A DNA stretch of 64,000 bases, taken from contig CAYMNK010000005.1 of assembly GCA_964391805.1 (NCBI GenBank), positions 30,701 to 94,700 of the forward strand, given 5' to 3'. The notes below the pieces were generated by a model that ran no database searches, was not told where the DNA came from, and saw only the letters and a program-made list of their open reading frames with translations. Source of the stretch: an uncultured Christensenellaceae bacterium (GTDB lineage: Bacteria; Bacillota; Clostridia; Christensenellales; CAG-1252). Positions 3,018-60,207 of this stretch are shown here, one piece after another. A program made the translations under genes and the position numbers. Position 1 is the first letter of the stretch. Every line of letters begins with the position of its first letter.

Positions 3018-3072
3018 ATTGTTTTTCCTTTTTTATTTGGATTTTAGTTACAGAATGGTATGTATAGATATC

Positions 3073-3264: not shown

Positions 3265-3374
3265 TTTAGCTCATGATTGGGCGCTATCGTTTGCCGTAAT
3301 GTGGATAGGGCGTTTACTAAACGCCCCTACATTTGTAATACTTTGTTGGTGTTTTAATAAAATTGTATGTGCTT

Positions 3375-3395
3375 TTCGTTCGCTCAGTATGACAT
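3375..3395. repeat. Minimal copy of the repeat core (TTCGTTCGCTCAGTATGACAT)
   Basis: Same core as at 1381-1396 and 3131-3144. It lies 10 nt downstream of the giant-1 stop codon. Confidence 0.45.
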
Positions 3396-3404
3396 GATGG
3401 GACG

Positions 3405-28400: not shown

Positions 28401-31400
28401 TATAGTAGTCTACACTTCCGTCGGAATGAACTGTCTTACTCTTATATCCGGAGTAATCGTTGACAATGCTGTTGATATCCCAAGTTACATTGACCGTACC
28501 TGCGATATCGTCTTCGGTTCCCGATAAGAATCCGCCGAATATTACCGATACTTGCGTAGGATAACTATCCGTCAGTCGCGGATCGAGTGCCGATGCCGAT
28601 TGATCTATTCCGTACGGATCGAATGTGAGGAAGTTACCCGCATTGAGTTGGAATTCTGTGATAAATCTATTCTCAATGGTCACAGGAACCTCTATCAATT
28701 GATATCCGCCTAAAGCATTACCTATTTTGGCAGTAACTTTTTTGGTACCGCCGTAGACATTCCATATTTCGTTCAATGCCGTTATATCCCAACTTACATT
28801 AGAGAATTCGAAGTTGGTATCATCGGTAAATCTTACCGTCAACTTGTCGGGATAAGTCGCTTTGTCGAGAGGATCGACACTTAAGTCGTACGGATCGAAT
28901 ACAAGTTCATCTATTAACAGACTCTTGATTACCTTGGGCTGTATAACAACCTTGAAATCAACACTTTGATATCCCGCCACATCAGACCCGATCTTTGCCT
29001 TTGCGCTATACTCACCGCCTGTATAACTAAGGGATATAGCGGAAAGGTCCCAAACGATTGGGTAATACCCTGCCGATTGTGACTCGAAAATAACGTTGCC
29101 AAGTTTGTTTTCGGGCGCGGTTATTAATTCGTAAAGATTAAATCCGTTAGTCGGATACAATGCTTCGTTTAAAGCATAATCGGTATAAACGTACGGATCG
29201 AATACATAAGAATCTCTTACCGCACTTAAGTTGATACTTGCAATCTTCCTACTAACTATCTCTATAGGTACTTCAATGGTTTGATATCCGCCGTAGGAGT
29301 TACCTACCTTAAGCAATGCCGTATATGTACCGCCGTTATAATCGAGACTGATTCCGTCGGTATTCCAAATAACACCACCTTCACCGTCAAATATACCTAA
29401 AGCATTGTATTCTGCTTTAAAGGTGGCAACCGTACCATTCTTATATACCACAGATACTTCGTCGGGATAGCAATCGGCATCGTATGCGTCGGTAGGATCG
29501 ACTATCTTACCGTTGATTACGTCGTATACCGCCAATTCCGGTTTATAAAGCGCTAACTTTTCAAGATCGCTTGCAATAGCCGTGTTGAAGATTGTTCCTG
29601 TATGAGAAATGATTATATTGGTGAATTGATAATCGATATAATCCACTATCTCGCCGTCCTTATCTCTCAATACATACAGCATACGCATAGGATCTATAGT
29701 TGTCGCTAAGCCGTCTATAACATAGTTAGATACGGTGGCGTCGATTATCGATACGGTTACATCGGTGGTTTGATAACCTGCCTTTTCAATCCTACTACGC
29801 TCCGCATCGTCGTCGCTTGTGATACGGAATTGCGCTTGAGATATACCGCCCTTGTAGTTGTTATCGATACCGGATAGATTCCACTCTACCCTCTGAGCTA
29901 TGTAATCGGTGTTGCCTTCGTACTTGACATATAAATACCTCGGGTACATGTTGACATTCAATGCATCGGGCATGATTGCTCCGTCGGTAAAATGATATGG
30001 ATCGAATTCGAGTTCGAGGTCGGATAAACTTCCGTCCGAATTCATAAGTTTCCAATCGGTCATCACGTACGATTTAATCGTTATGGTAATATTCTTATAT
30101 GTATAATATCCTATGTCGAGATTACCGATTTCCGCATCGACTCTATAGGTGTAACCTGTGTATACAGGGGTAATATCACTTGCGGAAATGCTCCACTTGA
30201 TATTATACAGTTCGGGTAATGAATTGCCGAAGGTCGCATATACTTGTGACGGTAATACTATCTCTTGGTAAGGATTGAAAATCAACGAACTTGTTCCGTT
30301 GGCATATCCGCCGTTTTCGTCGGGGAATATGATGCCGTTTAAGGTGTTTGCGTTGACTGTAACGGGGATAATCACTTGATAATTGCCTACAATTCCGTCA
30401 CCGAAGGTCAAGTATAGTTTATAGGTACCGCCGAGATAGGATTTACTCAACTCGTCGGCATTCCATTTTACTATATCGGAACCCATGCCTTCTCTACCGT
30501 CAAAGGTCTTGATAAACTCGTTTTCGCCGTTACCGTCGGTCATTGTTACATAAATAACGGACGGTAAATTCTTGATAAAGTTTTCGACTTCGTAAGCCTC
30601 GAGCACTACAGGATAATCGAAGCCAGATGCGGTAATCATAGGTGTCGGATAATATTCACCGTCTATATTTACCGATAGATTCTCATCGTATTTAACTTTA
30701 CGAGCGGAGCTTTGAGGTACATATACTTCGACATATTCTACATAGTTAAGTACATAGCCCTCGATATAGTAACTCGTGTCGCCCTTAGACGGATCGATTC
30801 TGAATATCGAGTCTGCCCAAGATACGTTGAGATTGCCAAGCGGTGTGTCTTCCGTTCCCTCGGGTACCGTTCCCGACGCAAACTTGTTGATGGTTGCGGT
30901 TTCGGGAAGATTTTCCATATAGTCGACAATACCGTTCTTGTCATAATCGAGTTCGAAAACGTCAGTTACAATACGCTTATCGAGATAATGGGTACTGTCT
31001 ACGTTAATGGTGATATTCGATTTATCCGAGGTATCGATACCGGCAAGTTTCAAGCCGTTCATGGCTATTTCCACTTCCCAGTATTCGCCGGTTGCCACAG
31101 TTTGTATGCTAAACAATATCTTGCTGATAGCGCTCAACTGTCCGTTGACAAGAGTGTCGTCAAATACTATTACCGCGAAGCATTCCGAACTTTCGGTTAT
31201 TGTCGGTAAAGGCAATAATCTTGCCACCAATTCGAATACAAGGTCGCCTGCAATACCTTCAATTAACTCGTTAATCAACTTTCTTGTTGAATTATCGGTT
31301 ATATTGATACTATCGTACAAATAATTGATAAACATGTCATAGATAGCATATAAAGTTTCGTTTTGCTTCAAATTATCGGTATCATAATCGGTTATGCCCA

Positions 31401-34400
31401 CCAATGAACCTAATCCGTCTACTATCAAGGCAGGAAGATCCTCAAACAGTTTCGCCATATATGCTCCGTTGAAATCTATTCTTACATTGGATATACCTGC
31501 TCCCGTTATTGCGTCGGAAGGTCTACCTAATGCACCTACGTCGCCGTCACCGAAAGTTATGCTCAATCCCTTGATCATACCGTCCGAACTATCGCTTGCC
31601 TTGCTTACCTTATTGTCGGAAACGTTTGTACGAGGATCGTGTGAACCCGTTATTCCCGACTTATTGATTAGGTCGTGAATGCTTATAGGTATGTTGATCG
31701 CTCTCTCGATATTATAGTTGATAAGCGGTATCGTGAAGTTGATATCCAAAATCAACTCATCTTGATACCAATAAATTCCTCTGAGTATATCATTGACAAG
31801 ATCGGGCAACATATCGGTAGCATCGAGTTTTAATCCGTGAATATATGTCGCGTTGTCGCTATCCGACGCGCCTATTCTTGTAATCTTGAACAATGTGTCT
31901 CTATCTTGTCCGCTAACAATAGATACACCCGAAGCATCTACATAGTCCGAATTGGATCTTATGGTTAAATCAATGTCCGAATTGAGTGCATCCAAAATGT
32001 TGGCAATGATATCGGCAATCAAAATTCCGTCATAGTTGTTTTCGAATCCGATCAATCCGCCGATATTGATACCCGAATAATCGCTGTATTCCTTATTGGA
32101 AGAATCGTATACGATACCTTCGAGCAATCCGTTTTGAGCGTCGTATCCGAGCTTGAATTTATTCAATTCGAGACTTACCGTGCTTCCTACAGCCTCTCCT
32201 CCATTCATCAATTTGTTGCCCTTTTCGTCCACATCGTAGCTTGTAAGCTCAACCTTTAATAAATCGAAGCCGTTAGCCATTCTAAGGTCGACACCTATAA
32301 CCGTCTCTTCGGGAAGGGTGAAATCGACGCCGAATACCTTGAACATCTTATTGAGCATATTGCCGTTAAAGTCAACGGATAACGCACTGCCCTTGGCACT
32401 ATCCTTAAGATATGATGCAAGCGTTACGGTCAACTTAGCATTGTTGATAACCTCTGCACAATTGTGTTCCACATCGGTCAATTCGCCGTTTGCATTACGG
32501 CATGTGCCGTTAGCAAGACAAGTCGAATTAGTACAACCGCAACTCAATCTCTTAGAATCGTCACCGGCTTCCGAGGTCTCCTTAGGTTCGTTCATTTCTT
32601 CGATTAATTTATTGATGAAGACTGTAACGTCCCTCGTTCCCAATAAACTGTATAAGAGGTCTCCGCCTATGTCAAGAGTACCGCCGGTAACATCTACGCC
32701 TAACATTTCTTTCAAAAGCATTGTAAGACTGATACCCTCTATCTTGGTCTTGAAGAGACCTAAACCGCTAAGGTCTATATAGAAGGAACCCGATGTATTG
32801 GTGGTATCGTCTTTACTATTACTGTTTGCACCCCAATAGTATAAGCCTAAGAGTTGCTTAGCCTCGCTTCCGTCCCTCGAGTAGGTAACCTCAACCTTTA
32901 TTTCGGTTTGTTTCCAATCGCTAAAATCGATGTCGGCAACGATCACAAAGCCCAAGGTTATAGTCGACGAAGCATTCTTAATCAATGTTACGGCACCGTC
33001 CGCAAATAATCCACTCGACTCCAATAAGTCGGTCAACATATCTACCAACGGATTGGTATAACCGTATGCATCCTTAGCAAGGTCTAATACTATTTCACCG
33101 CCTAAGTCGATATGGAATTCTTCCATATTCAATAAATCGACGTATCCGTTCAAGTTATCGAAGGCACTTAAATTATCAAATCTTCCGTTTCCGTACTCAA
33201 CACCCGATATGGTCGCATGAGGGAATTCAAGGAAGGTGGATATCGGTTTGGAAAGTGCATCGTATATCGAATTTAACGAAGTCTTTTCAATTTCATTGAT
33301 TAGTTTTCCGTCAACTACCGTCTTACCATCGCCTATCTTGACGTTAAGGTTGGTAACGGCTAATTCAACGCCCAACCAATCAAAGTTGTTGGTTCCCATA
33401 TTCTCGCCGAATAATCCCGAATCGTTCTTATCGAGATACATTCCGACACCTATAGACAACTTGTTAAGTAAGTTTTCGCCTTCTCTCAATACCTTATCAC
33501 CAAAATCTGCGTACACTTCCACTCTGTCGAATGTCGCCAAGTCGGTAATACTATTCAATATGGTTCCTACCGTTGAATCGAGATCGGCTGCGTTTATGAT
33601 GAGTTTTATCAACGCCATATTAACGGCAAGACCTATGCGTCCGTTGCCTAAAGAGATTGCAAGTTGTGCCGTTTCGGAAACGGTTGCGCTATTTGCTAAC
33701 ATATCGATTACATTTTGTACCGACGATAAATCGAGTCCGAAGGAATCAACGATTAGTCCGTAAAAATCGGGCTTATCGACGTCCGAAGCTGTAGCAAGTT
33801 TATCACCCCATTCAATTCCTGTGAGTCCAGATAAAATTCCCGACAAGTCGACGTTCTTGACGCAAAGACCTTCAATATCCATCATAGGAAGTGTCAAATA
33901 TACCGTTTCGGTTTGATTGATATAGTATAATCCGAGTAAGAGATAGTCGTAAATCTTACCGCCCTCTTGATATTCCTTAGATATTTCAAGTTTGACTTCG
34001 GTATTGTGCGAATCGGATATATCGAGAGCCATGCCTAAATCGATTCTCAATCTAATATCGTAAAAGTCGGTATCCGATGCCTTAGTATCGAATATTACGT
34101 TGAATAAATCGCTAAGTTCGCTATTAATTCCCGAATTGAGATAGAGAGAATTAGCCAATAAGTTGGTAAAGTCTATCTCGACATCTTCATCGTTTACTCC
34201 GCCGTTTGCTTGTAGGTAAATTGTCGTTTCGAATTTTATCTGCAATGCGGTAACGTCTATCCAGTTTTCATGTTCTTGATTATTATTCGGACGAATATCG
34301 GGAGCAAAATAAGTATTTGCGTTCAATGTTACTATAGGTTCGTCGCTATTATTGCCGAATACGCCTATTAAGGTATGCTCGCCGATGTATGCAACGTTAT

Positions 34401-37400
34401 CGTCCGTCATTTCTATGAAGCCAGAACCGTTATCCATCTTCAAAGTCAATCCGCGGAATACGCTATCACGATAAATAGTCCATTTGTCGGATAACTTATC
34501 GCTATTATATAGGTAGTCTCTCGAATATGCAGAATCATAGCCCTTCAACTCGAGATTGTAGAATTTTACTTCGGTTGTATATCGATTTTCTTCTTTACAG
34601 TCATCGATTACAAGTTTAAGATAACTGTTTTCAAAGTCATCATAACCGCGCGCTTCGATATAAATATCGACATCGTCCGAGAATACAGTATTGATAGCAA
34701 GCATTGCAAAGAGATTATTCATAACGTTTTTATTGAACGCTATGAGCAAGCCTTGATTGCCTACAGAAACTCCGCTGACTAAATTGCCTAAGTACTTGGT
34801 CATTCCAAGCACCTTGTCAAGTGTGCTCTCTTCTTTAGCATCGGGAACGATAGTTTTATCACTACACCCACATGTTTCGGAACACAACAATACACCGTTT
34901 TTGTCTATGCACGAACCGTTCTCGAGACATTTTTCGTCTCGACAACCACATGACAACATACAGCAAGAACATGTGCAGTCACCCTTTTCACGACAACGCA
35001 CGATTACTCTATATTCACCGTCGTCGCTTAAGGTCAAACAAGTGCCTGCCTTGACACATTCTTCATCATTGCAACCACAACTTAGTTTAGCGCAACTACA
35101 TCCGCAGTCGGTGCCGTCACATATCCTTAGTCCTGTCTTATCATAACAACTGCCGTTAGCGATGCAATTGGTGTCGGTACATCCGCAAGAGAGTTTACAG
35201 CAAGTACAAGCACAGTCCTCAAGACAGGTGTGCTCGCCGTAAGAAGTACATTTACCGTTGGTCAAACAAGTTTCGCAACGACAACCGCAATCGAGTTTAT
35301 CTTTATCGATATTCACTCTGTTGTCGTTATCGGAGCTGTCAAATGAACCGCCGTTTATATTGTTCGAAATATAGTTCTTGACCAATGAAACAATATCCGC
35401 TTCGACATAGAATGGATCTATTCCTAAAATACTCATATCTATGTACAGTTTGGATAAATCCTTTTGACCTGCGCCGTCGAAGTAGATGACAACGGGTTGA
35501 TCAATGGGCACAAGTGTTGAGCCGACTTCGCGATAATATCCGCCAAGGCTTATCTCAATCTTACCTTCGGACATATATGGCGATGATATATTCAGTTTGA
35601 GATAAAAATCTATCGTAATTTGGGTATCGACCTTAGTGGTCAATAATATAGCTGACTTGATCGCCTCGGCAAGTCCACTCAAATCAACGGAATCGCCTTC
35701 TATGTGCTCGAAGTAACTAAACGGATCGATATTTGCGGTATCGTAATCCAAGGTGATATCCATCGATGCTCCGAGCATATATTCCAAATCGGACCAACGC
35801 AAGTACTCGTCAAGCGGTAAGCCCTTAATCATGGTAAATACGCTCTCTGAAATATATCTATACTCCTCGCTTGCATCGTATAGACCGCTATTACCGAATT
35901 GCTCGGGAAGCTTGAAGTCCAAGCAAATATTGCATATACTCAAAGATATTCCGAAAGCTTGCTTGTTATAGCCCTCTTCGTTCATGGCAATTTTAATAGC
36001 CTTGCTATCGGAAATAATCTCGATATCGGTTAGTTCGCCAACAGATACTCCGCTCGGTGTTATGTAGAAATAGTCACCTATATATCTAATAGATTCCGTT
36101 ATTCCCTTATAAATAAGGATGGGTTCGTAGTTAGTCAAGTCGAGATATGCGCTATCTTCACCGAATTTCACTAAGAACTTTTGTTTTGATAACGAGAACA
36201 ATACTTTCTTACTTACCTTGGCACCTAACGAATCGACTTCAAATGCAAAGTAAGATTTTTCATTTGAGCTATCGCAAAGAGTTACCTTATCGATATCCAT
36301 GGTTATGGACGAAATATTCGATACGGTAAGTTGCTCATAAAGTTCGCTTTCGGTTACCTTTGAAGAATTATAAATGTAGGTAACAGTGCGATTCTTAGCA
36401 ATAACTGCATTAAAGACGTCTACACTACCGTCAAGATAATTAACGTAAATCGTCCAATTGCCGATAGATAAATTCTTTAGAGCATTCGCAGTCAAAGATA
36501 CCGTTTTTGCATCCTTATCGATGCGAATACTTGCGTAGTCGACAGCATTGTTATAAATGGGAGTACCGTTAGCATCATATGCTAAACTCGGTGCAAATAC
36601 CGTTTCTTTTTCTAAATCGATATTTATGGCGCCGTTTATGTAATCTAAGGTCAAGCCTAAATTACCCAACGAAATGTCATAATCGAAGTCGGTAAACATC
36701 TTGAGCAATGTATTGACAAAATTATCGGCAACCTCTATTCCTATGGTTCCTCTACCTATGGTGATATCCTTAAATAACGATAATACCCCTGCAACCGAGA
36801 AGTCCTCGCCGGCTAAAGCGTAATTGTCATAAACAGTGCTCGGCATATTATCGCCTGCTCCGCTAACATTATCGTTCCAATAATTAGATACCTCATCAAT
36901 AGAGATACTTACTTGGGTACAGGTAGCAAATTTAACGAGCGCGGGATTTGCATTGATGAACAATTCGTCGCCGTTAAAGTAAGCCATTAACATATCGACA
37001 TAATCGCCGTCTATTCCGGTGGATACACCCTCAACCGTAAATCCGTAACACTTCTTTTGAAGTTTGAGGTATACCTTGATATTTCTATAAGAGAAAGTGG
37101 TAAAATCGAGAGAATCGAGATGTACCCTGAGTATCAACTTATAGTCGCCGTTTATTTCACTCGATGACATTCCTAAGTTGAGAAGTACCGCTCCGAGAAG
37201 TCCCGACAAATCCTCGCCTAAATTCATTACCGAACCGTTGGTATTATACTTATCGTCGAGATTAGATATATTATTATTCGATACATCGATATTAATATCG
37301 ATATCCGCGGATAAATATAATTCGTCCAAACCGTTGACAACATCGATATATGCATCGCTATCGATATTATAGTTAGAATCATAAGTTTTACTCGGTCTGA

Positions 37401-40400
37401 ATGAATCGTCATTTACATAGTAAGTGCTTAATGAATACTTCAATAAGCTGAATCGATGCTCGCTATCGATAAAATCGTTTTTAAGAAGTACTACCGAGTA
37501 ATTATCGAAAGCTAAGTCGAGAGAGAAGTTTTCTATAGCAAGCGACAATGCCGGACTAATGTATGCACTTACGTTGAAGTAGCCCGTTGCCAAAACGCTT
37601 TCTGCGCCGTCAAACAACTCAAACTTCCACAATCCGTTAGGCAACTCCGAAACAGTCTTGTATATCAAAACAACACTATTTGAACGAACCAAAACATGCT
37701 TAGAAAGTTCGTCTAAGCCTATCGTCACCGCCTTACCGTCACGCGAAGTAAATACCGCCTTATTGACTACGCCCGATACCTTGATATCGAATACAAGATC
37801 ACTGCATACATTACTCTTACCGAATTTATCAACACCATAGGTTGTACCGCTATTATATTCGCTCTCGTTTATGGCGGTAAGCGAATTGATTAGCGACATA
37901 TCCATTCTAACGCCCTCGATTTCGGGAAGTGCGTAATCGATGCCTAAAAGTTCCTCTACTATCATGAGAATGTCTCCGCCGATATTGAGGCTTAAGGTAT
38001 CTTCGCTTGCACCTATGAAACTGATGAATGATAGGACGGTTGATGCAATCTTTTCGCCGTTATCAAAGCCTAAAAGTTTACGGCTACCGACCTTAGCGGG
38101 AATGGTTACGCTTCCACCTTCGGTGGTAACAATAATATTGTAGTAACAGCCTTGTGCGCTTTCGTTCAAAGCAACAGCGTTGGCGTTATTAAGTAATATA
38201 ATCGAGGTCAAATCGCTACCGTTATTAACTATATCGAAGTAGCTCGATATCTTTTCGGGAGTATCTAAAACTATTCTTTCGCGAACGGTACCCGATTTGT
38301 TGATATTGAGGTTTTCTATGACGATACTTTCTATCGACTTACCCTTGAGGGCAACATGGAAGGCTTCGTTATCCTTTTCTTCGGTGTAGAAATACATCCT
38401 ACCCTTATCAGCAAGTTCGGGATTATTTGTCTTTGGATCATATTTGATTTGTGATTCACTATCCGATGCACTCGATACACGTTTTTCGCCCAACAAGTCA
38501 ACTATGTCGAGTTTGATAGAAGGAGTATCACGCAAGATACCGAAGTCAATATATGCCCACCCGTCACTTAGATATAACGAAATCAATAACTGTGATCTCG
38601 ATGAATCGGTCACGTTGACAAACTCCAACAAGATCTCGTTTTCGGACAATATTCTATTAATATCGATATTATCCAATCCGTTTCCGAAAATGCTGTCGAT
38701 AGAGATATTTGCAAGGAAGTTCATCTGTACGATGTACTCGGAATCGTCAAAATCGATGCCTAAATCGGCAGTCGTACCGAATAAATTGGTGAATAAAGTC
38801 GATACGTTCCAATATCCTTCGTACGAATTATTGGTAATGGTTGCCGATGCCGATAATACTATGTTATCGTCTATAGTCAAACTCTTATAAGAACTTAATG
38901 TTTCTTTTACATCTTTGTCAAGGTATTCCCTCACATCCTTAGTATTGAGTTTTAGTCCGATGTCGGAAAGCGTTATAGTCAGTCCGGGATCGGTCAAGAA
39001 CTCATCGTTATCGGTAGTACCTTCGATATTAATACCTAATCCGCTACGTGTGCTTATGATAAATCCTGCCTTGAGCGCGCCTGCGTTTTCAAGGGCGTCT
39101 AAATCGATATCAACGCCGAAATAGTTGAGCAGTTCCGCTGTTATAGACGGACTTATGGCAAGTTGGATACCTCTTTCTTGAGATATATCTATACTTACAA
39201 TGGCTCTAAGTACCTCCAATACCGTATATGTTGTATCGGATGCAAACTTGTTAGTAGCGTTATATTTGCTGACACAACTCGAGTCGGTACAGTATGCACA
39301 TAGGTCATAACAACAGCCTCTACTCGTGCAAATAGGATCGTAACAACCACACTTTAGTGCGTTATCCTTATTCCATAACGGACGATGGCAGTTATTATCT
39401 GAAGAAGGTGCTTTAATATATCCGCAGTCGGTACAACCTATTACGCAACTGCCTCTGGATACACATTCGTCATTATTGCAACCGCATACAAGTTCATGTT
39501 CGCCGGCACTACTAACGGAATGATGATTACACTCACAAGAAGATAGACATTTACCGTCGCACACACCACTCGAAACACATTCGTCGCACTCGCAACCGCA
39601 GTCAAAAGGTTTACAATCACAACAACCGTCACCGCATATTCTACTTCCGTTATCCGAATAACAGCTTCCGTTGGCATTGCAAAGTACGTTTTCACATCCG
39701 CAATCGAGTTTTTCTTTGAAGAATAACGAACTGAGGTCGATACCTACATATTTAACTTTGGATATATTGAATGCCGGGATATCTAAGAAAATCGAACAGC
39801 CTTCGCTATCTAATCCGTCATAGAATATCATTGCTATTCTATTGTTCAACGCGTCCTTACTACCTTCGTAAATAGATAACAAAATTTGCGATGCGTTGAA
39901 ATTATTGAGATCGAGACTTCCGTCGATCACCAAAGTGAATGCCATTTTACCGCCGTAAGGCTCGGTCAAAATCTTGAATATCGAATCGAATCCCGGTATG
40001 ATTTCGTCAATTATGCTACTGAAATCGACGGTCAAGCCTTCGCCGTCCTTGGATTCGCCGAGCTCACCGATTAATTCTATGGCAACGCTGAAACTGATCT
40101 TGGACACCTCGGAGAATAATTGATAATCCGATATGTTCTTAAGTTCGGTTGTTTCTCTACGCGTAGATTCATCTATGCGATAGAAAGGTATATCGAATTT
40201 ACCGGTATCGAGTTTAAACGAACCGACTTTTAACGATACGGTAGATTTATCTCCTATATAGTCCCCAGTTTCGGCAGACCAACCGCCATAGAACCACATT
40301 TCAAGAGATGCATCGAGGTTTTCGAAGAATGCTTCCTCATAATAACCGCCTTTATCCCTGAATGCTTCAAAGTTTGTAAGCGCAATATCGTAGTTCGCTT

Positions 40401-43400
40401 CCGCTCCGTCGGTAACGGTGAGAGCCTTAAAACGTGTGATAAGAGTATCGAGTTCGCTCGATTTACCTAAATCGATATCAAATGCTTCCAATTCGTCAAT
40501 TATCGCATCCAATTCTTCGCCTTCAAGCACACTAACCGCTCTCAAAAGGTCTACAAGCGCCTTGCGTTGCACATCGGTCCGATAGTCTCTGTCTAAGTAA
40601 TTGACGGTAAAGGTCAAGCCCGCCGCGGGTGAATCTTCATAATTAAGTTTCTCATTGGTCAACAACTCGAACAAACTCGACAGCACGTGTGTGGTGGTAA
40701 CGAGTTGCAATTGAGTCTTGGACAGTCTGAATACATCAAACATGTCGGTAATAAGTCCCGTCCAATGTTCACGACAACTTAAGTCGCAATGAGTGTCGGT
40801 GGTGTATGCAAATATACACTCGTCACTATGGGCAAAGCATTCTTCGGCTGTATCGTGTACGGTGCACTTGATGAAAATACACTCATCCTTATCCAAAGGA
40901 CAGTTGTAATCATCGATATGTTCGGGATTGATACATCCGCATTCGAGCACGCTCTTGTGGCATAGACACGGATTTTGGTTATTGATACAATTATCTTCAT
41001 CGTCTCCGCATCTCGTTACGGGCACTTTGGTAAGTTCTTGTTGAATTATGCCGTCGATAATTACGTATGTTCCGTCCGAGTTACGCTTATTTTGATAAAC
41101 ATATTTCCAACCTATGATACAACTACCCGCTTCGACACATCCGGGATTGATACATCCGCACTCCAACGGATTATGACAACTACAAGAACAGTCCTCGCCG
41201 TCGTGACAGTAGATACCCATTACACCGCAAGCGTTTTCGTAATCGCCCGAAATGTGTGCATATTCTAAACAATAACTATCCGTACATCCGCAAGGCAATT
41301 TACAATCTAAGCATTCACAGCCGTCTGCACAAAGTTTTTTGCCTTCCCTATCGTAACAACTGCCGTTAGCAATACATGCGGAATCTTTACATCCGCAGTC
41401 CAATCCGTCTGATACGCTAACGCTCTCCAAGTAGTTTTCTACCGTACTTATCGAGTCAATTAGTGAACTTAAGTCGACATCGAGTTTGATATCGTATAAG
41501 CCGATCATAGGTGCATCGAGATATAACGAATTATCCATACCTACAAGATATGCTCTTGCCAATAGTGCTTCGTTATATTTAGGCGTTCCGTCGTTGTATT
41601 CGCCTATGCGCTCTTTGACCAAAACGCTCAATAGTATTTCGCTGTATCCGATATTTTTGAGATTAATATTAGCATTGATATCTATGGATATAACCATATC
41701 GATGTTTTCAACAATATTCAAGGTCAGTTTATCGTTAAGAAGGTATTGAACGACCTTCTCGAGATTGATATTCGATTTAAGCATATCGATGTCGATATCG
41801 ATACTTCCCTCGAAATAAAGTGTTTCCAATACGAGCATTTCTGGAGCTTGGAAATCGAGTAAAGTGACATAAGAGGTTACGTCTTGTGTGCGTGTGGGAC
41901 GTATACTCTTATCACTCGGTTTAATTGCATCTATTCCTGCCTTGATTCTAAGGTAACCGTATTTATTAACGGCACCGTCTAAGGTGTTTTCGAGTTCGAT
42001 ATCGGCAACAATTTGTTTGTTTGTAATACTTACGCCTACATAACTCAACGCTTTATCCGAATCGACTAAAGAGAATGGCAATTCAATCTTATATTTCGAT
42101 ATAAAGTAATCGAGAAGATTGCCTAAAAGTTCATCGTTCAATACGATATTTAAACCTTCGGGCAAGGTATGCTCGCCGTCCGATATTACTATTCTATCCA
42201 CAAGATTGGAAATCAGGCGAACAATTCCGTACCACTCAGGTTCGTCAGACGCTAACGACAAACCACCAAATAGCGATTGAACAAGAGAGGATGCATCTAT
42301 ACCCGTCAAAGCAATTTTGGGAACCTCGAACCAAGGTAGGTCTATGTATGCCTCGCCTTTATCCATGTCGAAGTATACCGATAACAAAAGCGAACCGATA
42401 TCGTATACGGCATCCTTGTAGTAAACTTCGAGGGCTAATTCGCTATCGAGATAATCGACTATACCGATTTTGGCATCGAGTGTATAATACAGAGTTCCTT
42501 GCATACCTTCGAGTTCGAAAGGAATACTGACATTTTTGATAAGTGACTGTATTACTCCGCCGAAATCATATGTTCCGTCGGGAATAGAATAATCCAAAGC
42601 ACCTGTCGAACTAATGTATAAATGCTTATAATCGTCGCTTGTGGTGTACTTAGATCCGTCAAAAGATATGTCTTGTCTTGTTCCTCTAATATTATAATCG
42701 CGCATCACAAGATCGAGATACGGGTCTTCTGCACCATCTGTCTTAGAATTTAAGGTTACGTTTGCCGAAATATTACGCTTGAATAAATCTACGCTAACGC
42801 TTACCTCTTTCAATTCTTCGATAAGTGCTTCACTGTTAAGAATCTCTAAACCTAATGCGCTCAATATATGCTTATTGAAGAATACCGACAAGGCTCCGTC
42901 ACTATCGATACCTAATTTAGATATCATAAGCAATATAATTTGAGAGGTTGTCAAATCGTCTATCTCACCTGCACTCGACAAAGTATTGGTGTCTTTCTTA
43001 AACAAACCGTAAATCAATTCCGCAATATCGATTCCTTCTATAACTTCGGTGATGCCTAAACTATCGAAAATGTTCTTGATTTCGAAATCTACCCTGATAT
43101 TTAACGACGAATCGAGAACGGGGGCAGATAAATACAAATATCCATTTCCGTCATAATAAACCGTCAAATAATCGTCATCAAGTGAGTACATATGTAAATA
43201 TAACTCGGTTGCATTAACATCGACAATGTTTAAGTTGAGATTTAGATCGAGTATTATTCTATTCGTCAAACTGCTTTCCACCTCAAACGGTACTTCGCTA
43301 AGTCCCAATACCTCACTGAATATATCGGTCAGTACATAGTCAGATACGCCATCGGTGGAAGTACTATTGAGATGATATCCTATTTCGAGAGATAACGATG

Positions 43401-46400
43401 CCGATAGGTATTCGATATCTTCGATAAAAGCATAAGATGTTGCGTCGGTTACGAGTTTGCTGACAAATCCGCCAAGTTTAATGATAGGTTTGCCTAATTC
43501 AACCGATAAAACCGTTTTATTGCTTGAATTATCGATTGCGGTTATACCGATATCGATTAGTTCATCGCTCTCATTGTCAAGCGTGAAACTCATATCTAAT
43601 TCAACGTCGGCATCAAGTAATGAATATCCGAGTTTTTCAAGCAAAAGGTCAATAAACGCAACGCTTCCCCTCAATACCAATTCTTTAGAATGAACAAGTA
43701 TTTCGAATGCGCTACTATAGTCAAGACCGCTCTCGCTCGCTAACGATACCTCGCTACTACCGAAAATAAGTTTTAATAACTCTTCAACCTCGAGTTTCAT
43801 TGCTACTTGAGGTAAACCGAGATTGGATAAATCAAGATAAATATAACTGTTTTGATAATACAGTTCGGCTACCGCTACGCTACCCGACGATGTGGTTTGT
43901 TTTAGTTCGAAATAAATATATAGATCGTCAACTAACGCAAAGATAACTTCTTGGATGCTACCGCCGTCAACGAGTTGACTAAGTTTATCCGAACCCATTC
44001 CAACATTAACTTCGAAATTGAAATCAAGTTTTTGTTCACCTTCACCAAATACTATCTCGGTATCCGCACCCTGAATCTCATTCAAGATATTATCAAATGA
44101 ACTATTTCCGCCGTTGGATTGAAGCAAGTTTCCTATATTAATCTTACTGCCGTCGGAAGACAAGCCGATAGATCCCGACAAGGACATATATAATGCCTTT
44201 GCTTCGGTAATCGTGGTGTACTGTCCTAACGGCGTTTCGTATATCAAATCTTGGTCGAATGAAACTTCCGGCTCGTACACGATTAAATCAAGGTATTCGT
44301 CCTTAACCTCGAAGGCATCGAGCATTGCAATCACCTGTGCTTTTTGTGCATTATCGATACAAATAAATTCGTCCGACTTCACAATCGAGGCAATCACTTT
44401 AAACTCATCGTTACTGTTACGGTCGGGATCAAACGCAATAAGCTTATCGATTATTTCGTTTTTGAGTATGGAACAAGATTCATCGACCTCTAACGCATTT
44501 GCTCCCTCGATAATCTTGGCAAGTGCATTCTTATTGCCGTCATTCATTAGCAATTCAAGTCTTGCTTCTAATAGATTGGAACGAACGGTGTCGTTTTCGC
44601 TTTCTTTCTTGAATACAGTAGTATCCTCGATTCCGTGGATAAAGTTGTTGATCTTAATGTAACTTCTATCGCAGTTGAGTTTAGAAAAATCGATATCGAG
44701 TCCGACAAGTTTACAGATTAGACTCAATAGATCTTCGGCAAAGTCGATTTGAACATTGTCTTCGGTAATTCTAAGCCCTGTAAATAAACTGAGTATATTT
44801 TCGAAGGTAATGTCTTCTTCCGATGCTCTACTTGTTTCGGGAGAAAGTGTCATACTTCCGCCTATTGCATCGTTAATGACAGTACGCCAAGGTGCCTCGT
44901 CTATCTTTAACAATAAATCAAAGTACGGTATGTTGATGTACAATGCACCATTTTCGCCCTCGGAACCTATGTAACTCAAAGCGAGTTTGAGATCTTCAAC
45001 CATTACCTCGTTAGCCGAAATGGTTGAAAGTTTGTAAATTTGTATAACTATCTCCGAACCGCCTAAGTCAATAGGTGTATTCGAATATTGGTCAAAACGA
45101 AGGTTGATTTGTAAATCAAGCAAATAATGTGCGTCAACATCGTCTTCGAGCCATAATCCTATCGGTAATTCTGAGATATCGAAGGGCAATGTTCCCGACG
45201 GAATATACTTGTCGAGAGTTTCGCCGATTAGATCGGTTATAGCAATGAAAACGTCTTCCTTTGCTTGAGCATTAAACTCGATTGCCGTTTTAACGGTAAG
45301 GAATTCTACATTTTCTTTATAAGTCTTAGGAGAGGTTACCTCGTATTTACTTGCATCGAGTTTTAAATTACCTATGCTTATCGTCAAATCGGTAGTGTCG
45401 TTAACCTTTACCGATGCTTCGATTCTATCGTCGACATAGCCTAACGACAGTTTACCGCCCTCGGTATTGAATGCAAAGTAGTTGCCGTACCATTCTGTCG
45501 ATGTATTATCCTCGACTAAGACCTTATTGCTTGCACCAGACAAGGTAATCGATGTAATATCCAATCCGTCTAATTCAATAGCGTCTATGCTCACTTTGGT
45601 AACCGATTTAGTCATTACAAAGGATGTTTCATTTCCGTCCGAATATAAGACATTAATATTGTAAGCACCGACTGATAACGCTTTAACTACATTACTCGAT
45701 ACATTAAATGCTATCGTATTTCTGTTTCTGTCTATTACGAAGTATTCGTTTATTGCTCTCGTTGTAGTCAATTCGGCAATCAATGCAGAACTTCTATAAA
45801 TCGCAATTCTATCTATGCTCTTATAACCGATATTGAGAACGTATTCGACATAATCGTTTTGCTTTTCGAAAGAGAACGAAGTATTGACTATTTCAAATGC
45901 GCTTTCGGTAGAACCGCCGTCTTGATAGTAAACTACAAAACGGTGTACGCCTACACTCAATGCTTTAACCGATGCGGATGCTTTATTAACAGATAGTTTT
46001 TGACCGTCAATGTGGAAGTAATCCTCTATATCGGATAATTCTTTACCGTCTAATTCGATTTTTGCTATCTTTTCCGATTTGAGTGATAACGTATATTTTT
46101 TTGAGTTCACACCGCTACTTACCGAGAAGTCGTTGCCGTAACGAATACCGTCTACCGTTGCTAAATAATCTCCGTCAGCTAACTTGTCGGTGTAATCGTT
46201 GTTTTTAAGCGTTACGCCCTTAATCAATGCGGGCAAATACTTATCATATCCAAAGAAAGATAATACCGCTTGAAGTATTTCACCGGTAACCGATATCTTA
46301 AAGTCGTCGTCTAAAAGCAATACCGAAATACTGCCTTTAAGGGTGTCGAGCAAGCCCAACATGGAATCGTCTTTTCCGTATGTATCGCCGTCCTCGGCAA

Positions 46401-49400
46401 AACTTAGGTTATTGATATCGAATACTCCGCCTATCAAAGTACCGAGATCGACATCTACCATAAAGGGTTCGAGTCCTAAGAAGGTAAGTTCAATACCTAA
46501 AATACCGCTATTGCCCGAGCGTGTATAGTACAAGCTCAATACCGTTTCGCCGTTATCGTAATCAAACAACTCGATAAAGAAGGTCAAACCGTAAAGCGTT
46601 TCGGCACCTTCTGCAAGGTTGAATGCAGCATCAACGCTCAATACATATTTGCCTTTGAGCATATCGGCTATATCGATAGAGAAAGTAGTATCTACGAACT
46701 CTTGAAGTATTGCGCTAAAATCAAAAGCGTTAGTATCGTTAGGATCGTTGGTTGCGCCTATGCTAAAATCGATAATCGCATCAAAAGATGCGTGTCCATG
46801 CATAGCATCCGCTGAAACGTATTCGCCAAGTTGACCGAAGAAGGTCAGTTTGTCGTAATCTCCGCTTCCTTGTGACGGATAAATTACTTCCAAGTCTTGT
46901 CTGAATTGTAGCGACAAATCACCCAACGCAACGTCAAGGAAGAAATCGGCATTATCGGCTAACTCGATATGTACACCTAAACCGTTTTCTATATCTGTCC
47001 CGACTGTGGTCGAACCGTATGCGGTTTCCATACTTAAGTCGTTCAAAACGCCAATGCTGACCATGCTGACGATTTCGGGTAAAGTTAACTCAATACCTGC
47101 CATTACGCATACTCTCGATAGTATTTGTGAACTGAGAGAAAGTACTGCGCCTTCAGGAGATAACTTGAGGGTGTCGAAAAGTTTGATTATACTTATGTAA
47201 TCGGTTGCTTCCTGTACTGCCGATTTCGAGTCATTCGACTTGATTATCGACATCAAAAGTTCGCTTAAATCAAAAGCATCTCTTACCGCAATCTTCAAAT
47301 TGATAGAAGGTATGTTGACATATATTACGTCGTTTATGTTGCTTTCATAGTATATGCCTATCACCGGCTCGCCGTCGGCATAGTTAGCCGTGTTGTTCTT
47401 ATCGCGAACAACAAGCATTACTTCGAGAGTCATGCCGTTAATTATCTTTTGTACCGCTTGTGCCAAAAGTTCGGAATCGCCTATCATAGCAAGCTTTAAT
47501 TCGGATAAATCTAAGCCCGCTATTGCAATCTCGGCGTCCACTCCGTAATAAATTTCTCCGTTAGAATCGGATGTTAGTAACACCCTGAGCAAGTCGTTAT
47601 AACTTGCTATTTCTTTTGCGGTCAATTCACCGTCTACAAAGGTGTCGCCTTTACCCGCTTTTACGGTCATAGAGAAAGCAAAATAGGTTTGCTCTAAATC
47701 TTTCAATAGAATCGCACTATTCTTGAGATCGGCAATTTTACTGCCATATTCGGGACGAGATTCCAATGTTTCGCCGTCATTGGGGAAGAAGATACCGTAA
47801 TCGTTAAGTTCTACCGATAATACGCTTTCACCACCCAAGGCAATCGCCACGCCTGTTCTATCGGCATTAATATAAACGGACGCACCTTCAAACAAAGCGT
47901 TGATATCGCTCCAAACTCCGCCTACTTCTAATGCATCGAGTATAACGCCTATAGCTCCGCCCGTAACTTCAATAAGTATTCCGTTATCGATTTCGGCTTG
48001 GATTATGTTATCCATAGGCTCGCTTGCCATTACGGTCGAAGGCTTGAGCATATCGCCGATAAGGTCGCTAATATAATCGGCAATGCCTAAATCGTCTACT
48101 CTAATCGCATTACCGCTTCCGCTTCCCAATTCAAGGTATATTGCCTCTATGGGTTTATTTTCGACAGAATATCTATCGAGTGAGTCATAATACAAAGATA
48201 ACAGTCTATTATTCTCGGCATAGTCCATAACTCCGTTAGTGGATGCATATAGACTTAACCAAAGTTCGATACCTATATCTTCGAGCGAATTAAATCTAAT
48301 ATTGAGTGCCAACTCGATACCTATATCGAGATGCACCTTACCTGTCGATGAATTGACTTCGATATTGAGCGAGGATCCGGGAATGTTGTCCGATATAACT
48401 TTATTGACAATGTCGGCATATTCCTTGTCTAATACAAGAGATAACTCGACATTGCTGTTTATACCTACGTTTAGTGTATCCCAAGATATATATTTACTTT
48501 CATCGGCAACAAACTTTTCGGGACGAGAGAATGCAACAGCTAAACCGTTCAAACCCAAGTCTAAGGCAAAAACTTTATCGTTACCGTCTAAAATACCTAC
48601 CCCTATTCCTACATTTATTCCGCTTTCCGCCGAAATACCTAACGAAACATTGGCGTTTACATCGGGCAAAACTACATTTTGAAGAACCTCGATAGACAAT
48701 AACGAGGTTAAAACTCCCAATAGGTTGGACGTGCTAATTACCTTAAGATATCCGTCCGCTCCGTTGATTTCGACACTATCGATAATTCCGTTGATAATAT
48801 CATAAACATCGTTTGAATCGCTTGCTTCGGATACCTTGGCACCGCTAAGGAAGGATAATGCTTTGATAATAGAATCACCGATGTTACCTTGTATCTGCTC
48901 TCTTATGTAGGGAATTTCCACATAGAAATCCTTAACTGCCATTGACGGCAACGATACATAGATGCGATCGGTGTTACTGTCGTAGAACACATCGAGTACA
49001 ATGCCATTTCCGTCTGAAAGGGTGATATCGAGCGCTATCTCCGATAAATCGTAAATATTTGCAAAAAGTTCGATATTGAGAACAAATCTCGTATCGATAT
49101 CATAATCGAAGTAAATCGCTAATTGACTGAATAGCGTTTTTATAGTATCTTCTACTTCGACATTTTCCAATATTTGAGAAACAACAGGAGATAAATTAAC
49201 ACCGTTACCGTCGGACGAATCGACAGTTCCGTTAATATCAAATCCGATCGATAACGCAAAGTATATTTCTTTCATAGAAAGTGCGCCCGTTTCATCGGAA
49301 ATCGCTACATATTCGCTTTCGGAAACTTCGGCAAAGGCTATCTTCTCGATATCGCTATATGCTGTCTTTGCAAGCAATCCGCCGATAGATAACTTGACGC

Positions 49401-52400
49401 TTGCTCCCGCAATACCTAAGTCAAGGGCTATTCCGCCCTCTGTGGTAATGCCCAACGATACGGCATCAAAATATTTATCGATGTCGATACCCGATAAATC
49501 TACGCCGAATTGTTCGAGAATAGACATCAACATTGCTCCCGTTAAAGTAACCGCAATACCGTCTTGATTAAACTTGAGCGCAACGAGTTTATCATAAGGA
49601 GTCGACTCGCTTGCACTACTCGTCGATGCCTCACGCGTCATCGAATCGGCTATAAGCGAATAAATATCCAAACCGCGATACTTAACTTCTCCTATACCGA
49701 ATAAGGGAGCGGTCGCATACACGGTATCGCTAATTCCGTTATAGAATACAGAAAGTGCTACATCGCCTCTAACCGAATTTTCGTCTAAGGTGTAGACTTT
49801 CAGTAATAATTGCATATCTTTGAGCAATTCCATAGTTTTATCGCTATCCGAAAAATCAAGATAGGATAAATCTAAATTGGCGAATATATCATATGCAAGT
49901 GCTATATGTAAATCGCCCTCGGTAACCGCCATACCAAAGGTAAGTTCGGGTAATACATCCTTGATAAGGTTTTCGATGGTAGAACCTTGGGTTCCGCTTG
50001 CGAATTTATCGATGTCGAGCCCTATCGTACCCGATAAGGCAAATGACATCTCTTGCAAATTATCAAAATCCAATATATCATAAGATAGAACGTCTTCGGG
50101 GATAAGTGCCTCATTCTTGATGAAGGCAAGCGCAATATTTTGCAATCCTAACGTAACATAACTCAGCCCTTCCGTCGTGTCGGGATCGGAATTGTTATCT
50201 TTAATAAATAACGTCAAGCCTAATCCTAAACCGTCTTTAATACTCAAATCGATACTCGGAATAATGCCGTCAAGCGCTACTCCTGTATAGAAATCGTCAA
50301 TATCGAGTACGGCTACGCCAACAATGTTCAAAATACGCTTTAGAGTATTAGATGCAAGCGTTATTGCTAAGCCTTTATTTCCAACGGATACGGAATTTAG
50401 AATGCCGAGGTTCTGAAGTATCAAATCTGTCACACTTACATCACCGTTTTCGGTAGCTAAAGAGGTAGTTCCGTTACAACTGCATTCGCATGTGTCGGGA
50501 CAACCGACAGCATCGCCTACTAAGCAGGCTCCTCTCGAAATACACGCATCGCAATCGCATCCGCATACCAAAGATCCGACTTTAATTTTAAAACTGTCGA
50601 TATCATAGCCAGATACTTCACTTCCGTTAACCTTACCGTGTGTGGCATCGACGTAAAGATAGATGCCGTCAAAGTAAAGTGTCAATAGCGTTTCGCCCTC
50701 GTTTATCAACTCTATCTTAGCATCCATTCCGCTCATGATTTTGGCGAAATCGGTTCCGTTCGATAGCGAAATATTCGCCGATAATTTGATTAGAATATCG
50801 CCTTTAACATTACTGCCGTTCAAGCCGTCAATGCTTATATTCAAGAATAAATCATTGAGTAGAGTCGCATATTCGCCTAAATCGAAATGGTCGGCTATGG
50901 TCAAAAAATCGCTTACATCGTATGTATTACTCTTAAGATCGTAACGGACGTACAGTTCGGTAGATAATGAAATATCCTCGATTGCCGTAATGTCCTTGTA
51001 CTCCGCATAGTTAATTTTCGGAAAATCGGTATATTTGGCATCGATATTAATATCATAAATATTAACACCTAACTTAAGGTTACCTTGATGAGAATCGGTG
51101 GTGGCTAAGAATAAATCAAGCCCAATTTCCAATCCGTTCTCGGTGGAAATATGTAGATTGCTTTCGGAATCGAGTTCTATCATATCACGAATATCGGCGC
51201 CCATAACTACCGACAAGATAGCATCCAATACATCGCTTGATAGATATATTGCAAGTTGTTCGTTAATAGCAACTTTATTGACGATGCTACCTATCAAATT
51301 AAGTATTTGTGCTGTATCGAGGTCGGATGCCTCAGCAGTATTCTCAAAGGTCAATAGAGCATCGGAAGCCATTGCGCTTGCCGACTTGTTTAACGACTTA
51401 TTGATCATCGATACAAGATCGAGATCGTATTTGATTTTAGGCGCATCGAGTCCTTCGATACCCAAATTATCGAGGTTAATAAAGATTGCGGAAGCATTAT
51501 CGGCGTAATCGTCATAATAAACACTCAAAAGTTCGCTTCCGTCGTTTTTAGCAACGATCTTTAAGGCAAGTTCGAGTTCGCTGATACTAACCGATAATTC
51601 TTCACCTTTAATCAAATCTGCTAAAGAGAAGCCCTCAAAACCTACGTTTCCTGTAAGAAGTAAGGTAATACCGCCTTTAATTCTATTCTCGAACTTGAGT
51701 ACGCATGCCAATTCCGCCAAGTAATCGCGGAGAGACCCGATAGCATCGTTTATGTCGATACTGACACCACCGTCACTATAATCGATGTCGCCCGAATCAA
51801 AATCAATGTCTATACTCAAATTCAACGACATTTCATTCATTTCGTTGAGATCGATAAGGTCGTCTGTAATCTCAACATCTATAAATTTAGGTTCGAATCC
51901 TAAGCCTACAAGAGGAAGTTCAAGCGAAACTACGGTATCTTCTGCAAGATAAATATCAATATCGCACGAAATACCGAAAACGTCGGGCTCGGTGATAAGA
52001 CCTAATTCCAAGTCAATTGATCGAAAAGCTATAGAATCGTCCGAATATGCCTTATCGCTCATAGCATCGGCTATCGCCTTAACTACGGCGCCGTCATCAC
52101 CCATAAAGCCTGCAACTGTTTCAAGAATATTGATAAGAGAAGTTCTGTCAAGAGTCAACGATAAACTTTGAGTTTCACCGTCAAGTTCAAGAGCACGCAA
52201 TACCTCGACCACAAGGGGAATAATATTATTTTTTATCAAGCCCAAAACATCGGTTTCACCCGCAAAAGCAAGATTGAAGGAATTACTCATGAAGTAATTA
52301 CGAATGGCTTGTTCGCGGTTTTCTCCACCGTATAAACGAATAAGTGCCGATTCGACCTCGCTTGCAGATGCGGACGACGAAAGCATCGCCGTCAAAGATT

Positions 52401-53826: not shown

Positions 53827-53883
53827 AAAATGACCTCCATCCGACATAAGCCCGATGAGGCCATGACGGATAATAATATATTT

Positions 53884-54675: not shown

Positions 54676-55410
54676 TTATTCTTCGGGCTTGGTCGGCCAA
54701 AGATTGTTGCGTTCGGGATGAAAAAGTGCAGACAACATATGCTCTTTGATATCCGGAATACGCTGAATTAATTCCTTTACAAATTCCTTAGCGTGCTCTC
54801 TTTCGGTATGTTTATCCGCAGGACACGGATTGATAACAACAGGCAAATCGAGCCTTTTAGCAGATGAAATTATATATTTTTCTTCCAAATATACCAATGG
54901 TCTTATTACCGTAATCCCCGTTCTATCCAAGTAACTTGTAGGCGAAAAAGTGGAAAAGCGACTTTCATACGCTAACGATAACAACATCGTTTCCAATACA
55001 TCATCGGCATGATGACCTAATGCTACTTTATTACATCCCAATTCTCGCGCTGCGTTACATAGGGCGCCTCTGCGCATTTTACTACACAAAGAACACGGAT
55101 TGCTCTCTTTACGAATATCGAATATTATTTCAGCAAGATCGGTTTCGATTACATGTAACTCCATACCTTCTTTGTCGAAAAATGCCCTTAGTTCGTTAAA
55201 TCTATTTTGATCGGTATCCTTAAACCCCATATCGACGTGTATGCCGATAACGGTAAATTTCTCGGGCGAAAACCTCGAATAATCGTGTAATGCCTTAGCA
55301 AGAACCAAACTATCCTTACCGCCCGATACGCCTACTGCGATTTTGTCACCGTCTTGAATCATCTTATAATCGTCGACGGCACGCCTTAATCCACTCAATA
55401 CTCTTTTCAT
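54676..55410 (-). CDS. ttcA: PP-loop ATPase, TtcA-family tRNA 2-thiocytidine synthetase-like (244 aa)
   Basis: PP-loop SGGKDS (VGVSGGKDSLVL), motif NPCSLCSKMRRG (CxxC), and a third Cys in INPCPADK. This matches the TtcA-type Fe-S ligand pattern. The gene lies 21 nt downstream of the ABC transporter gene, so they probably form an operon. Confidence 0.7.
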   Translation of the reverse strand: MKRVLSGLRRAVDDYKMIQDGDKIAVGVSGGKDSLVLAKALHDYSRFSPEKFTVIGIHVDMGFKDTDQNRFNELRAFFDKEGMELHVIETDLAEIIFDIRKESNPCSLCSKMRRGALCNAARELGCNKVALGHHADDVLETMLLSLAYESRFSTFSPTSYLDRTGITVIRPLVYLEEKYIISSAKRLDLPVVINPCPADKHTEREHAKEFVKELIQRIPDIKEHMLSALFHPERNNLWPTKPEE

Positions 55411-55431
55411 TTAATTATTACCTTTGTACAA

Positions 55432-57903: not shown

Positions 57904-57957
57904 TTCGACCTTCCCTCGTTTGTAGGTTAACAAACGATTATTGTATAAGCTTCTATT

Positions 57958-57966
57958 ATTATAGCA
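57958..57966 (-). promoter_or_regulatory. Extended -10 (TGcTATAAT) candidate for the ABC/ttcA operon
   Basis: On the minus strand, TGCTATAAT lies about 55 nt upstream of ATG 57903. The -35 is weak (TTTAAT). Confidence 0.3.
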
Positions 57967-58112
57967 TTTATATTGAAAGAATTAAACTTTTTGACGCATT
58001 ATTTTTGTTAAAAATATTTATTTTAGGTTAATGATTTTTGATTTTCATTTTTTCAAATCGCAAAATGCCTCATTTTATCGCCTTTATTTAAAATATTTAA
58101 TTATGCTCATCA

Positions 58113-58141
58113 TTGACATATGGGGTATAATGATTTAAAAT
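58113..58141 (+). promoter_or_regulatory. Candidate sigma-A-type promoter for the MFS transporter gene
   Basis: TTGACA (58113-58118), 17-nt spacer, TAAAAT (58136-58141). A leader of about 23 nt contains GGAGAG (58160-58165). Confidence 0.5.
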
Positions 58142-58170
58142 ATTAATGTAGTATAATGCGGAGAGTACGA

Positions 58171-60198: not shown

Positions 60199-60207
60199 AG
60201 GATTAAT

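Follow-up and report, generated by a model that had tools for sequence, protein, structure and literature searches.

A 64,000-nucleotide (nt) stretch of DNA from an uncultured Christensenellaceae bacterium (contig CAYMNK010000005.1, positions 30,701 to 94,700; "the window" in what follows) contains an open reading frame (ORF) of 10,461 amino acids (aa) in which the cysteines are gathered into a few dense clusters. This raises the question of whether the clusters represent a domain and, if so, what holds such a domain together. An original prediction, made from the sequence alone, had proposed a recurrent 8-Cys mini-domain of about 35 aa that begins with C-G-C-x4-C-x3-G-x-C and is placed at the junctions between modules of the protein. 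We conclude that this is almost certainly a real, undescribed and conserved domain, and judging from its sequence we lean towards units that bind metal rather than form disulfides.

The 12 exact matches to C-G-C-x4-C-x3-G-x-C that had been predicted were all found at their places, in one frame of the 10,461-aa ORF (nt 32500-50565; starts at aa 1095, 4151, 4230, 4716, 4750, 4788, 4833, 6187, 6221, 6257, 6300 and 7103), and the motif is absent from every other frame of the window. No match arose in 2000 residue shuffles of the whole protein, and the analytic expectation is 4e-8. When residues were shuffled within the Cys clusters only, the mean number of matches was 0.005; since such shuffling hardly ever yields the motif, it is an ordered motif and reflects more than Cys richness. 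Six clusters (c1 to c6, Table 1) hold 120 of the 151 Cys, and the other 31 are spread over about 9,850 aa (0.3%), in line with the earlier remark that Cys is sparse elsewhere in the protein. The earlier counts of 34 Cys at 34859-35296 and 31 Cys at 39274-39708 were likewise reproduced, within the boundaries given in Table 1. All three degenerate copies that had been named are present (CGCTDSYC at aa 4186, CGCINPEH at aa 4303 and CRCDKCVGTVC at aa 9002), the last of them in c6, beyond the range of the reader who made the prediction.

An alignment of 29 units, taken from the window and from homologues, gave the consensus x-L-x-C-G-C-x-[DNC]-x2-C-[ILV]-x2-G-x-C-Y-D-x2-G-x3-C-x3-C-x-C-x-C, where conservation extends beyond the Cys to a Leu, three Gly positions and one aliphatic position. 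Each unit has eight conserved ligand positions, and a ninth and a tenth are optional. The motif is best explained as the N-terminal half of an independently folding mini-domain of about 35 residues, which occurs singly or in tandem arrays of 2-8. Two sub-types were distinguished: a long-hairpin form (NGSCYDxxGxxxC) and a short form (xGxCxGxKC), the latter usually with an extra Cys two residues past C-G-C and often with a His-terminated tail. Within the window, the degenerate c2 unit CGCINPEH has His at the third Cys position, unit 2 of c3 has the ending C-E-C-N-H-H, after which comes the linker motif SVSSAGE, and unit 3 of c3 is of a type with seven Cys and one His. Cluster c6 lies outside the N-terminal module series and gave a marginal match to the hidden Markov model (HMM) of the unit. 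At the DNA level the units resemble each other weakly (no more than 75% over 40-48 nt), which indicates that the arrays are old duplications and neither recent slippage nor an assembly artefact. An AlphaFold2 (AF2) model of the four-unit c4 array reached a mean predicted local distance difference test (pLDDT) score of 60.5, with block means of about 65-77 over units 1, 2 and 4, and in every unit it places a short helix at x-x-C-[ILV]-x-N ahead of a beta hairpin. A Foldseek search of the PDB with this low-confidence model gave no match (best E = 9.3).

The cluster profile was searched exhaustively against 1.84 billion (1.84e9) protein cluster representatives and found six proteins (P0001 and P0032 to P0036). 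One metagenome scan added one sequence, identical on two JGI contigs of 205 kb and 227 kb (L029, Ga0265300_10000024, and L030, Ga0310786_10000028, with loci of 20.9 kb). The frame of L029 is open for more than 6,968 aa and has a guanine plus cytosine (GC) content of 58%, compared with 41% for the window, so the giant-protein family spans organisms of very different base composition. Every relative is a piece or an orthologue of one giant modular protein family, and no free-standing small protein made of units was found among the 1.84e9 representatives. Word-indexed homologue searches, which are nearly blind to this family, returned 1, 0 and 2 hits, and no locus came up when GTDB species genomes were scanned with the cluster alignment. 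The ABC-F gene that neighbours the giant ORF in the window is 93% identical to a copy in an uncultured Christensenellaceae metagenome-assembled genome (MAG), and the host, a gut Clostridia bacterium of Christensenellaceae type, is presumably anaerobic. Syntenic loci located via this ABC-F gene held no giant gene. The contig of the closely related MAG with the 93% identical ABC-F gene (L002, CAZUET010000057.1) stops near the expected start of the giant gene (window ~53850), and other relatives are known only from fragments of 1-3 kb. Short-read assembly probably breaks off at giant repeat genes of this family, and this may be part of the reason why they are rare in databases.

Two of the relatives cover most of the protein. 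P0036 is colinear with aa 1-3360 of the window protein at about 26% identity and has the same lipoprotein N-terminus, and L029 is colinear with aa 3243-9987 at 23-31% identity; these colinear homologues show that the 10,461-aa ORF is a real gene. A check proposed with the original prediction, whether homologues keep the clusters at the same junctions, gave a positive answer for c1 to c4: orthologues at 23-40% identity have them at the same junctions with nearly all Cys kept, and the number and presence of units vary (Table 1). Aligning c4 with P0032 and P0035 showed 29 of 34 Cys columns invariant at about 40% overall identity. Clusters c5 and c6 have no counterpart in L029 at orthologous positions, and two junctions that carry units in homologues have an acidic linker only in the window. 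Once present, the units are thus under strong purifying selection, while at linkers they are gained, lost and duplicated. The comparison revealed neither a match to a known family nor homologues in which the clusters are absent or randomly placed, and the view of a recurrent mini-domain as opposed to low-complexity drift is upheld by the ordered motif together with the Cys conserved in orthologues.

The units are placed within a protein that consists of at least 18 beta-rich modules of about 290 aa (aa ~150-7250) and, after them, a C-terminal region of Ig-like repeats. Modules were delimited by iterated HMMs built from the cluster flanks, whose elements reappear at intervals of ~270-390 aa from aa ~400 to ~7250. 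Of the two elements, "up" is a strand block (…[YF][YF]D…[LI]Y[IVL]D.P…K…L..L) and the "down" element reads …L..I..V.V…GL.I.L….L..LL..G; both were found in all homologues. The position of the units is uniform, after the strand block and before the "GL.I.L....L..LL" block. The original prediction had placed the clusters about 30-100 aa past a "YY..YxD" motif, and this distance holds for all five N-terminal clusters; the literal pattern YY..Y.D, however, matches once, and the actual block ahead of these clusters is the looser "..[YF][YF]..(x)..[LIF]Y[IVL]D..". A model of two modules plus c1 (578 aa, 18-row alignment) was predicted by AF2 as mostly long beta strands with a pLDDT of 51, and Foldseek returned generic all-beta matches for it, with no fold identified.

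After the "up" block a junction is filled in one of three ways: by a short acidic linker of Ser, Ala, Glu and Asp, by Cys units, or by both. The acidic linker stands alone at 13 of the 18 detected junctions (those following aa 480, 818, 1402, 1655, 1930, 2202, 2475, 2995, 3360, 3597, 3859, 5119 and 6675), while AASAESDESVCGC, ETSEAGDDSKRLSCGC and CDCHSSVSAAEGSS represent junctions that combine it with Cys units. The linker core reads A-S-[DE] in the window protein and A-A-E-[ST] in homologues, always shortly past the strand block. Such a short conserved core within a variable linker may serve as a hinge or as a site of processing or modification. The junction table bears out the proposal of two kinds of junction. 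The accompanying claim that Cys units replace the acidic linkers is right in that the same junctions are used, but in homologues and in c3 and c5 the units adjoin the linker core, and they are better described as insertions into the acidic linker than as replacements of it.

The N-terminus of the 10,461-aa protein reads …VFVIVAC / LTLTAC and is of lipoprotein type, with an equivalent N-terminus in P0036. With the lipobox recognised by its consensus, we infer a surface lipoprotein, and because of this lipoprotein-type signal the Cys units would be extracytoplasmic. Big_4 and MBG_3, both matched near the C-terminus, are typical of bacterial extracellular surface proteins, and the first ~8,000 aa have no Pfam and no NCBIfam match. 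The C-terminal third (aa ~7760-9866; nt ~24250-30560, minus strand) has internal repeats of its own, of about 100 aa. The protein joins two different repeat systems.

Table 1. Positions of the Cys clusters and associated features in the window, with counterparts in homologues
Feature	Window position (nt)	Strand	Position in protein (aa)	Content	Counterparts in homologues	Basis
Giant ORF	22462-53847	minus		10,461 aa; all Cys units		ORF list and translation
Signal peptide with lipobox	53743-53847	minus		MSDGGHFMKKQRFLFTVMLVAIVFVIVAC LTLTAC		Direct sequence reading; lipobox by consensus only
c1	50476-50565	minus	1095-1124	One short-type unit, 9 Cys; CGCDCDACISRGACLVGDAVGCPDTCECSC	P0036 aa 1184, single short-type unit, same junction	
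Example of acidic linker	49594-49641	minus	1403-1418	MTREASTSSASESTPY		Junction table
Junction without Cys units			~1655	Acidic linker only	Units in P0036 at aa 1733	
Junction without Cys units			~3360	Acidic linker only	Units in L029 aa 286-359 and P0033 aa 1089	
c2	40774-41397	minus	4151-4358	33 Cys; two to three canonical units plus degenerate ones (4-5 total)	L029 aa 1139-1396, 61 Cys, ~8 units; c2 tail: L029 aa 1529-1703, degenerate copies including CYCTNPAH	
c3	39274-39702	minus	4716-4858	31 Cys, four units (32 Cys counted from aa 4684)	P0001, 4 units; L029 aa 2072-2134, 2 units	
c4	34864-35289	minus	6187-6328	34 Cys, four canonical tandem units	P0032, P0035 and L029 aa 3380-3567; 5-6 units	
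c5	32458-32541	minus	7103-7130	Truncated unit, 5 Cys and 1 His; acidic linker ETSEAGDDSKRLS before it		
c6	26788-26844	minus	9002-9020	Compact 7-Cys variant CRCDKCVGTVCSDSCDCWC, C-terminal region		
Big_4 and MBG_3 matches	23011-24369	minus	~9827-9866 (Big_4); ~10207-10279 (MBG_3)			Pfam scan
Second giant ORF	3405-22280	minus		6,291 aa, directly downstream of the first		ORF list

The units resemble no described family closely enough to be assigned to it. Using hmmscan, the clusters and ten homologous clusters matched no Pfam-A family even at E<=10, relatives of epidermal growth factor (EGF) domains included, and the clusters had no match in NCBIfam. In hmmsearch runs against PDB sequences the best E-value was 0.055 for the cluster profile and 0.11 for the unit profile, and an LDL-receptor-like linker, GPCR F1 and the circulins were dismissed as chance-level matches. 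This agrees with the original prediction, which had not recognised the Cys spacing as EGF, furin-like, zinc-ribbon or metallothionein; none of Pfam, NCBIfam and PDB gave a match. Literature searches yielded no description of the domain. The family itself is undescribed, although giant extracellular proteins with small Cys-rich structural repeats are known in general.

Several known systems share part of the layout. The Tesmin/TSO1 CXC domain (LIN54, MSL2) has a similar opening, C-x-C-x4-C, later CxC pairs and about nine Cys in ~35-40 aa, again in tandem, and CXC (CRC) domains fold around a zinc (Zn)-thiolate (Zn3Cys9) cluster. They are eukaryotic, nuclear and DNA-binding, whereas the unit is bacterial, lies in linkers and is predicted to be extracytoplasmic. 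The hhalign probability with LIN54-CXC is 1.6% with the Cys in register, to be read as a lead only, and Pfam TCR (C-x-C-x4-C-x3-Y-C-x-C-x6-C-x3-C-x-C-x2-C) gave no match at E<=10. EGF-like and laminin-EGF domains also form tandem Cys-rich beads of ~35-40 aa in very large extracellular proteins, and share with the unit a G-x-C ... C-x-C pattern, a central beta hairpin and a likely role as rigid spacers. The unit is set apart by eight to ten ligand positions, Cys/His exchange, frequent odd Cys counts and an anaerobic Firmicute as host; an EGF-like assignment was rejected because even, fully paired Cys would be expected, but 18 of 35 units are odd and His occurs at conserved Cys columns.

The bacterial metallothioneins SmtA and BmtA have in common with the unit that they are bacterial and rich in Cys and His, with metal-thiolate binding, CxC motifs and a small hairpin. 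SmtA, however, is a free cytoplasmic protein of 56 aa and the unit is a repeated module inside a giant surface protein, and SmtA was set aside at an hhalign probability of 1.1% with no match to Pfam Metallothio_Pro, the alignment again being a lead only. The L-x-C-x-C-x-N-x2-C-x2-N-G stretch of the unit resembles the cyclotides circulin A and B, but cyclotides have six Cys, are cyclised head to tail and come from plants; the best PDB match of this kind, circulin A, extends over 15 residues at E = 0.11, which is chance level. A zinc ribbon or treble clef needs two CxxC(H) knuckles, and the pairs in the unit are CxC, Cx4C and Cx5C with no conserved CxxC. Haem attachment as in c-type cytochromes was discarded for want of a conserved CxxCH, the unit tails being CxCxC(H/C) or CxCxHC, and an Fe-S "wire" was ruled out by the presence of clusters at only 5-6 of at least 18 junctions.

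The substitutions at the Cys positions point to a metal site. His makes up 8 of the 23 residues that stand in place of Cys in the eight Cys columns, compared with a background frequency of 0.9% (binomial p = 1.7e-11), and the last ligand column holds Cys 22 times, His 7 times, Asp 3 times and Val once. Besides the odd-numbered units among the 35 well-formed ones, nine Cys are present in 10 of the 35. Units with seven Cys and one His follow the pattern C-G-C-x4-C-x3-G-x-C-x2-3-C-x2-C-x3-5-C-H and are kept in three lineages (window aa 4788; P0001 aa 107 and 144; L029 aa 2072 and 2109), and a paralogous window unit without the terminal His has an eighth Cys in its place. In two lineages, orthologous degenerate units carry His where the third Cys would stand (window aa 4303, CGCINPEH; L029 aa 1679, CYCTNPAH). 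One or two Cys of the second half are lost in P0034 and P0036, which have one or two His nearby (PTHKHCDESC, CPDEHCNKSC), and units with the optional Cys at column 8 tend also to have Cys or His at column 35 (Fisher p = 0.02). Because Cys, His and Asp are exchanged with the ligand count preserved, the pattern is that of a metal site and not of cystines. The scarcity of Cys outside the clusters fits the tendency of aerobic Firmicutes to keep Cys out of the proteins they export instead of relying on disulfides (PMC2823432), although applying this to an anaerobe is an extrapolation.

Each unit would accordingly fold around bound metal, probably Zn, instead of four disulfides, with two tetrahedral Zn per unit as the favoured sites and a small Zn-thiolate cluster in variants with 9-10 ligands. 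In this way a flexible acidic linker would become a compact bead or short rod that resists proteases, the beads would set the spacing and stiffness between modules, and copy number would tune the length of the linker. A structural role is the most economical one because the units are extracytoplasmic by prediction, confined to linkers, serial and variable in number, and because no free proteins were found among the 1.84e9 representatives. We cautiously favour metal-binding structural beads on this basis. The more specific proposal that extracytoplasmic metal-thiolate beads (two Zn or of Zn3Cys9 type) replace EGF-like repeats in strictly anaerobic gut Clostridia is tentative. Several points weigh against beads that bind metal. 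Confidence in the c4 model is modest (mean pLDDT 60.5), the ligand spacings CxC, Cx4C and Cx5C differ from the classical Zn knuckles (CxxC), and the order C..Cx4C..GxC..CxC recalls disulfide-stabilised alpha/beta motifs of the defensin-like kind. The first 15 residues of the unit are weakly similar to cyclotides (E = 0.11), functional DsbA/VKOR is present in some Clostridia (PMC12453122), some of the His counted in the units may not be ligands, and the spacer role is one that we infer from position alone.

Several of the same features would suit a disulfide-knotted mini-domain with about four disulfides per unit, comparable to EGF, defensin or knottin domains, which would act as a rigid protease-resistant spacer and be oxidised by Dsb/VKOR-type enzymes or spontaneously. 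Eight conserved Cys and conserved Gly in about 35 aa speak for it, as do the GxC-x9-C hairpin and a Cys order that resembles cystine-stabilised folds, the helix and hairpin of the AF2 model, which are compatible with such folds, the weak cyclotide likeness of the first half and the Clostridia with DsbA/VKOR (PMC12453122). We regard this as a serious rival but as the less likely reading, since half of the units are odd in Cys number, single exchanges of Cys for His or Asp and the units with seven Cys and one His would leave Cys unpaired, the host is an anaerobic gut Firmicute whose protein avoids Cys elsewhere (with exclusion documented for aerobic Firmicutes; PMC2823432), and Pfam and PDB gave no match to EGF, knottin or defensin families. 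If metal is bound, the units might instead serve as a metallothionein-like surface buffer or scavenger of Zn, Cu, Cd or Fe, for acquisition or detoxification and not for mechanics. The very high Cys density (34 Cys in 142 aa in c4), the CxC and CC motifs, the 9-Cys units compatible with M3Cys9 clusters and the range from 2 to about 8 units at one junction across lineages, as expected for a dosage-type function, would agree with this. It is improbable in our view, because the conserved Leu, Gly, aliphatic and Tyr-Asp positions and the predicted helix and hairpin describe a defined fold unlike most metallothioneins, hhalign against SmtA gave about 1% with no Pfam metallothionein match, and, in the search of 1.84e9 representatives, units turned up solely in linkers of a single giant-protein family and in no free small protein. 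Drift towards a biased or low-complexity composition, or an artefact of assembly or reading frame, with no domain involved, might be suspected from compositionally extreme clusters in a highly repetitive host protein with very rare database relatives. Conservation already refutes this, and we give it practically no weight: the ordered motif is not reproduced by shuffling within clusters, Cys positions are invariant at 23-40% identity in organisms of 41% and 58% GC, the open frame extends over 10,461 aa in the window and over more than 6,968 aa in L029, and the DNA repeats are weak.

The window gave no sign of a mobile element or of a dedicated maturation system, for which neither a Dsb-like gene nor a metal chaperone is present. 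The second giant ORF is rich in Gly, Ser, Asn and Thr; its N-terminus has a hydrophobic segment, its C-terminus a transmembrane helix plus an acidic tail. It has no Pfam match and, by the unit HMM, no Cys units. Its 6,291-aa product may work together with the 10,461-aa protein. On the other side of the giant ORF, nt 54676-62199 encode a PP-loop (TilS-like) protein, a fused ABC-ATPase/FtsX permease, an MFS transporter and the ABC-F protein, which are chromosomal neighbours of an ordinary kind. The S component of an ECF transporter is encoded at 1430-2107.

The units define a domain family with no detectable relative in Pfam, NCBIfam or PDB, so far in a few giant proteins of uncultured gut Clostridia. 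The motif provides a short, clean signature for finding giant, unannotated and assembly-breaking genes in metagenomes, and the c4 array, of about 150 aa, is a small, expressible object for work on metal content and structure. If metal is indeed bound, the family would be a rare bacterial case of tandem extracellular domains for Zn or another metal, and would show by what means strict anaerobes equip their exported proteins with rigid, compact linker beads, for which eukaryotes and aerobes use disulfides. Such a bacterial extracellular "zinc bead" would allow stiff proteins on a multi-micrometre scale to be built in a reducing environment.

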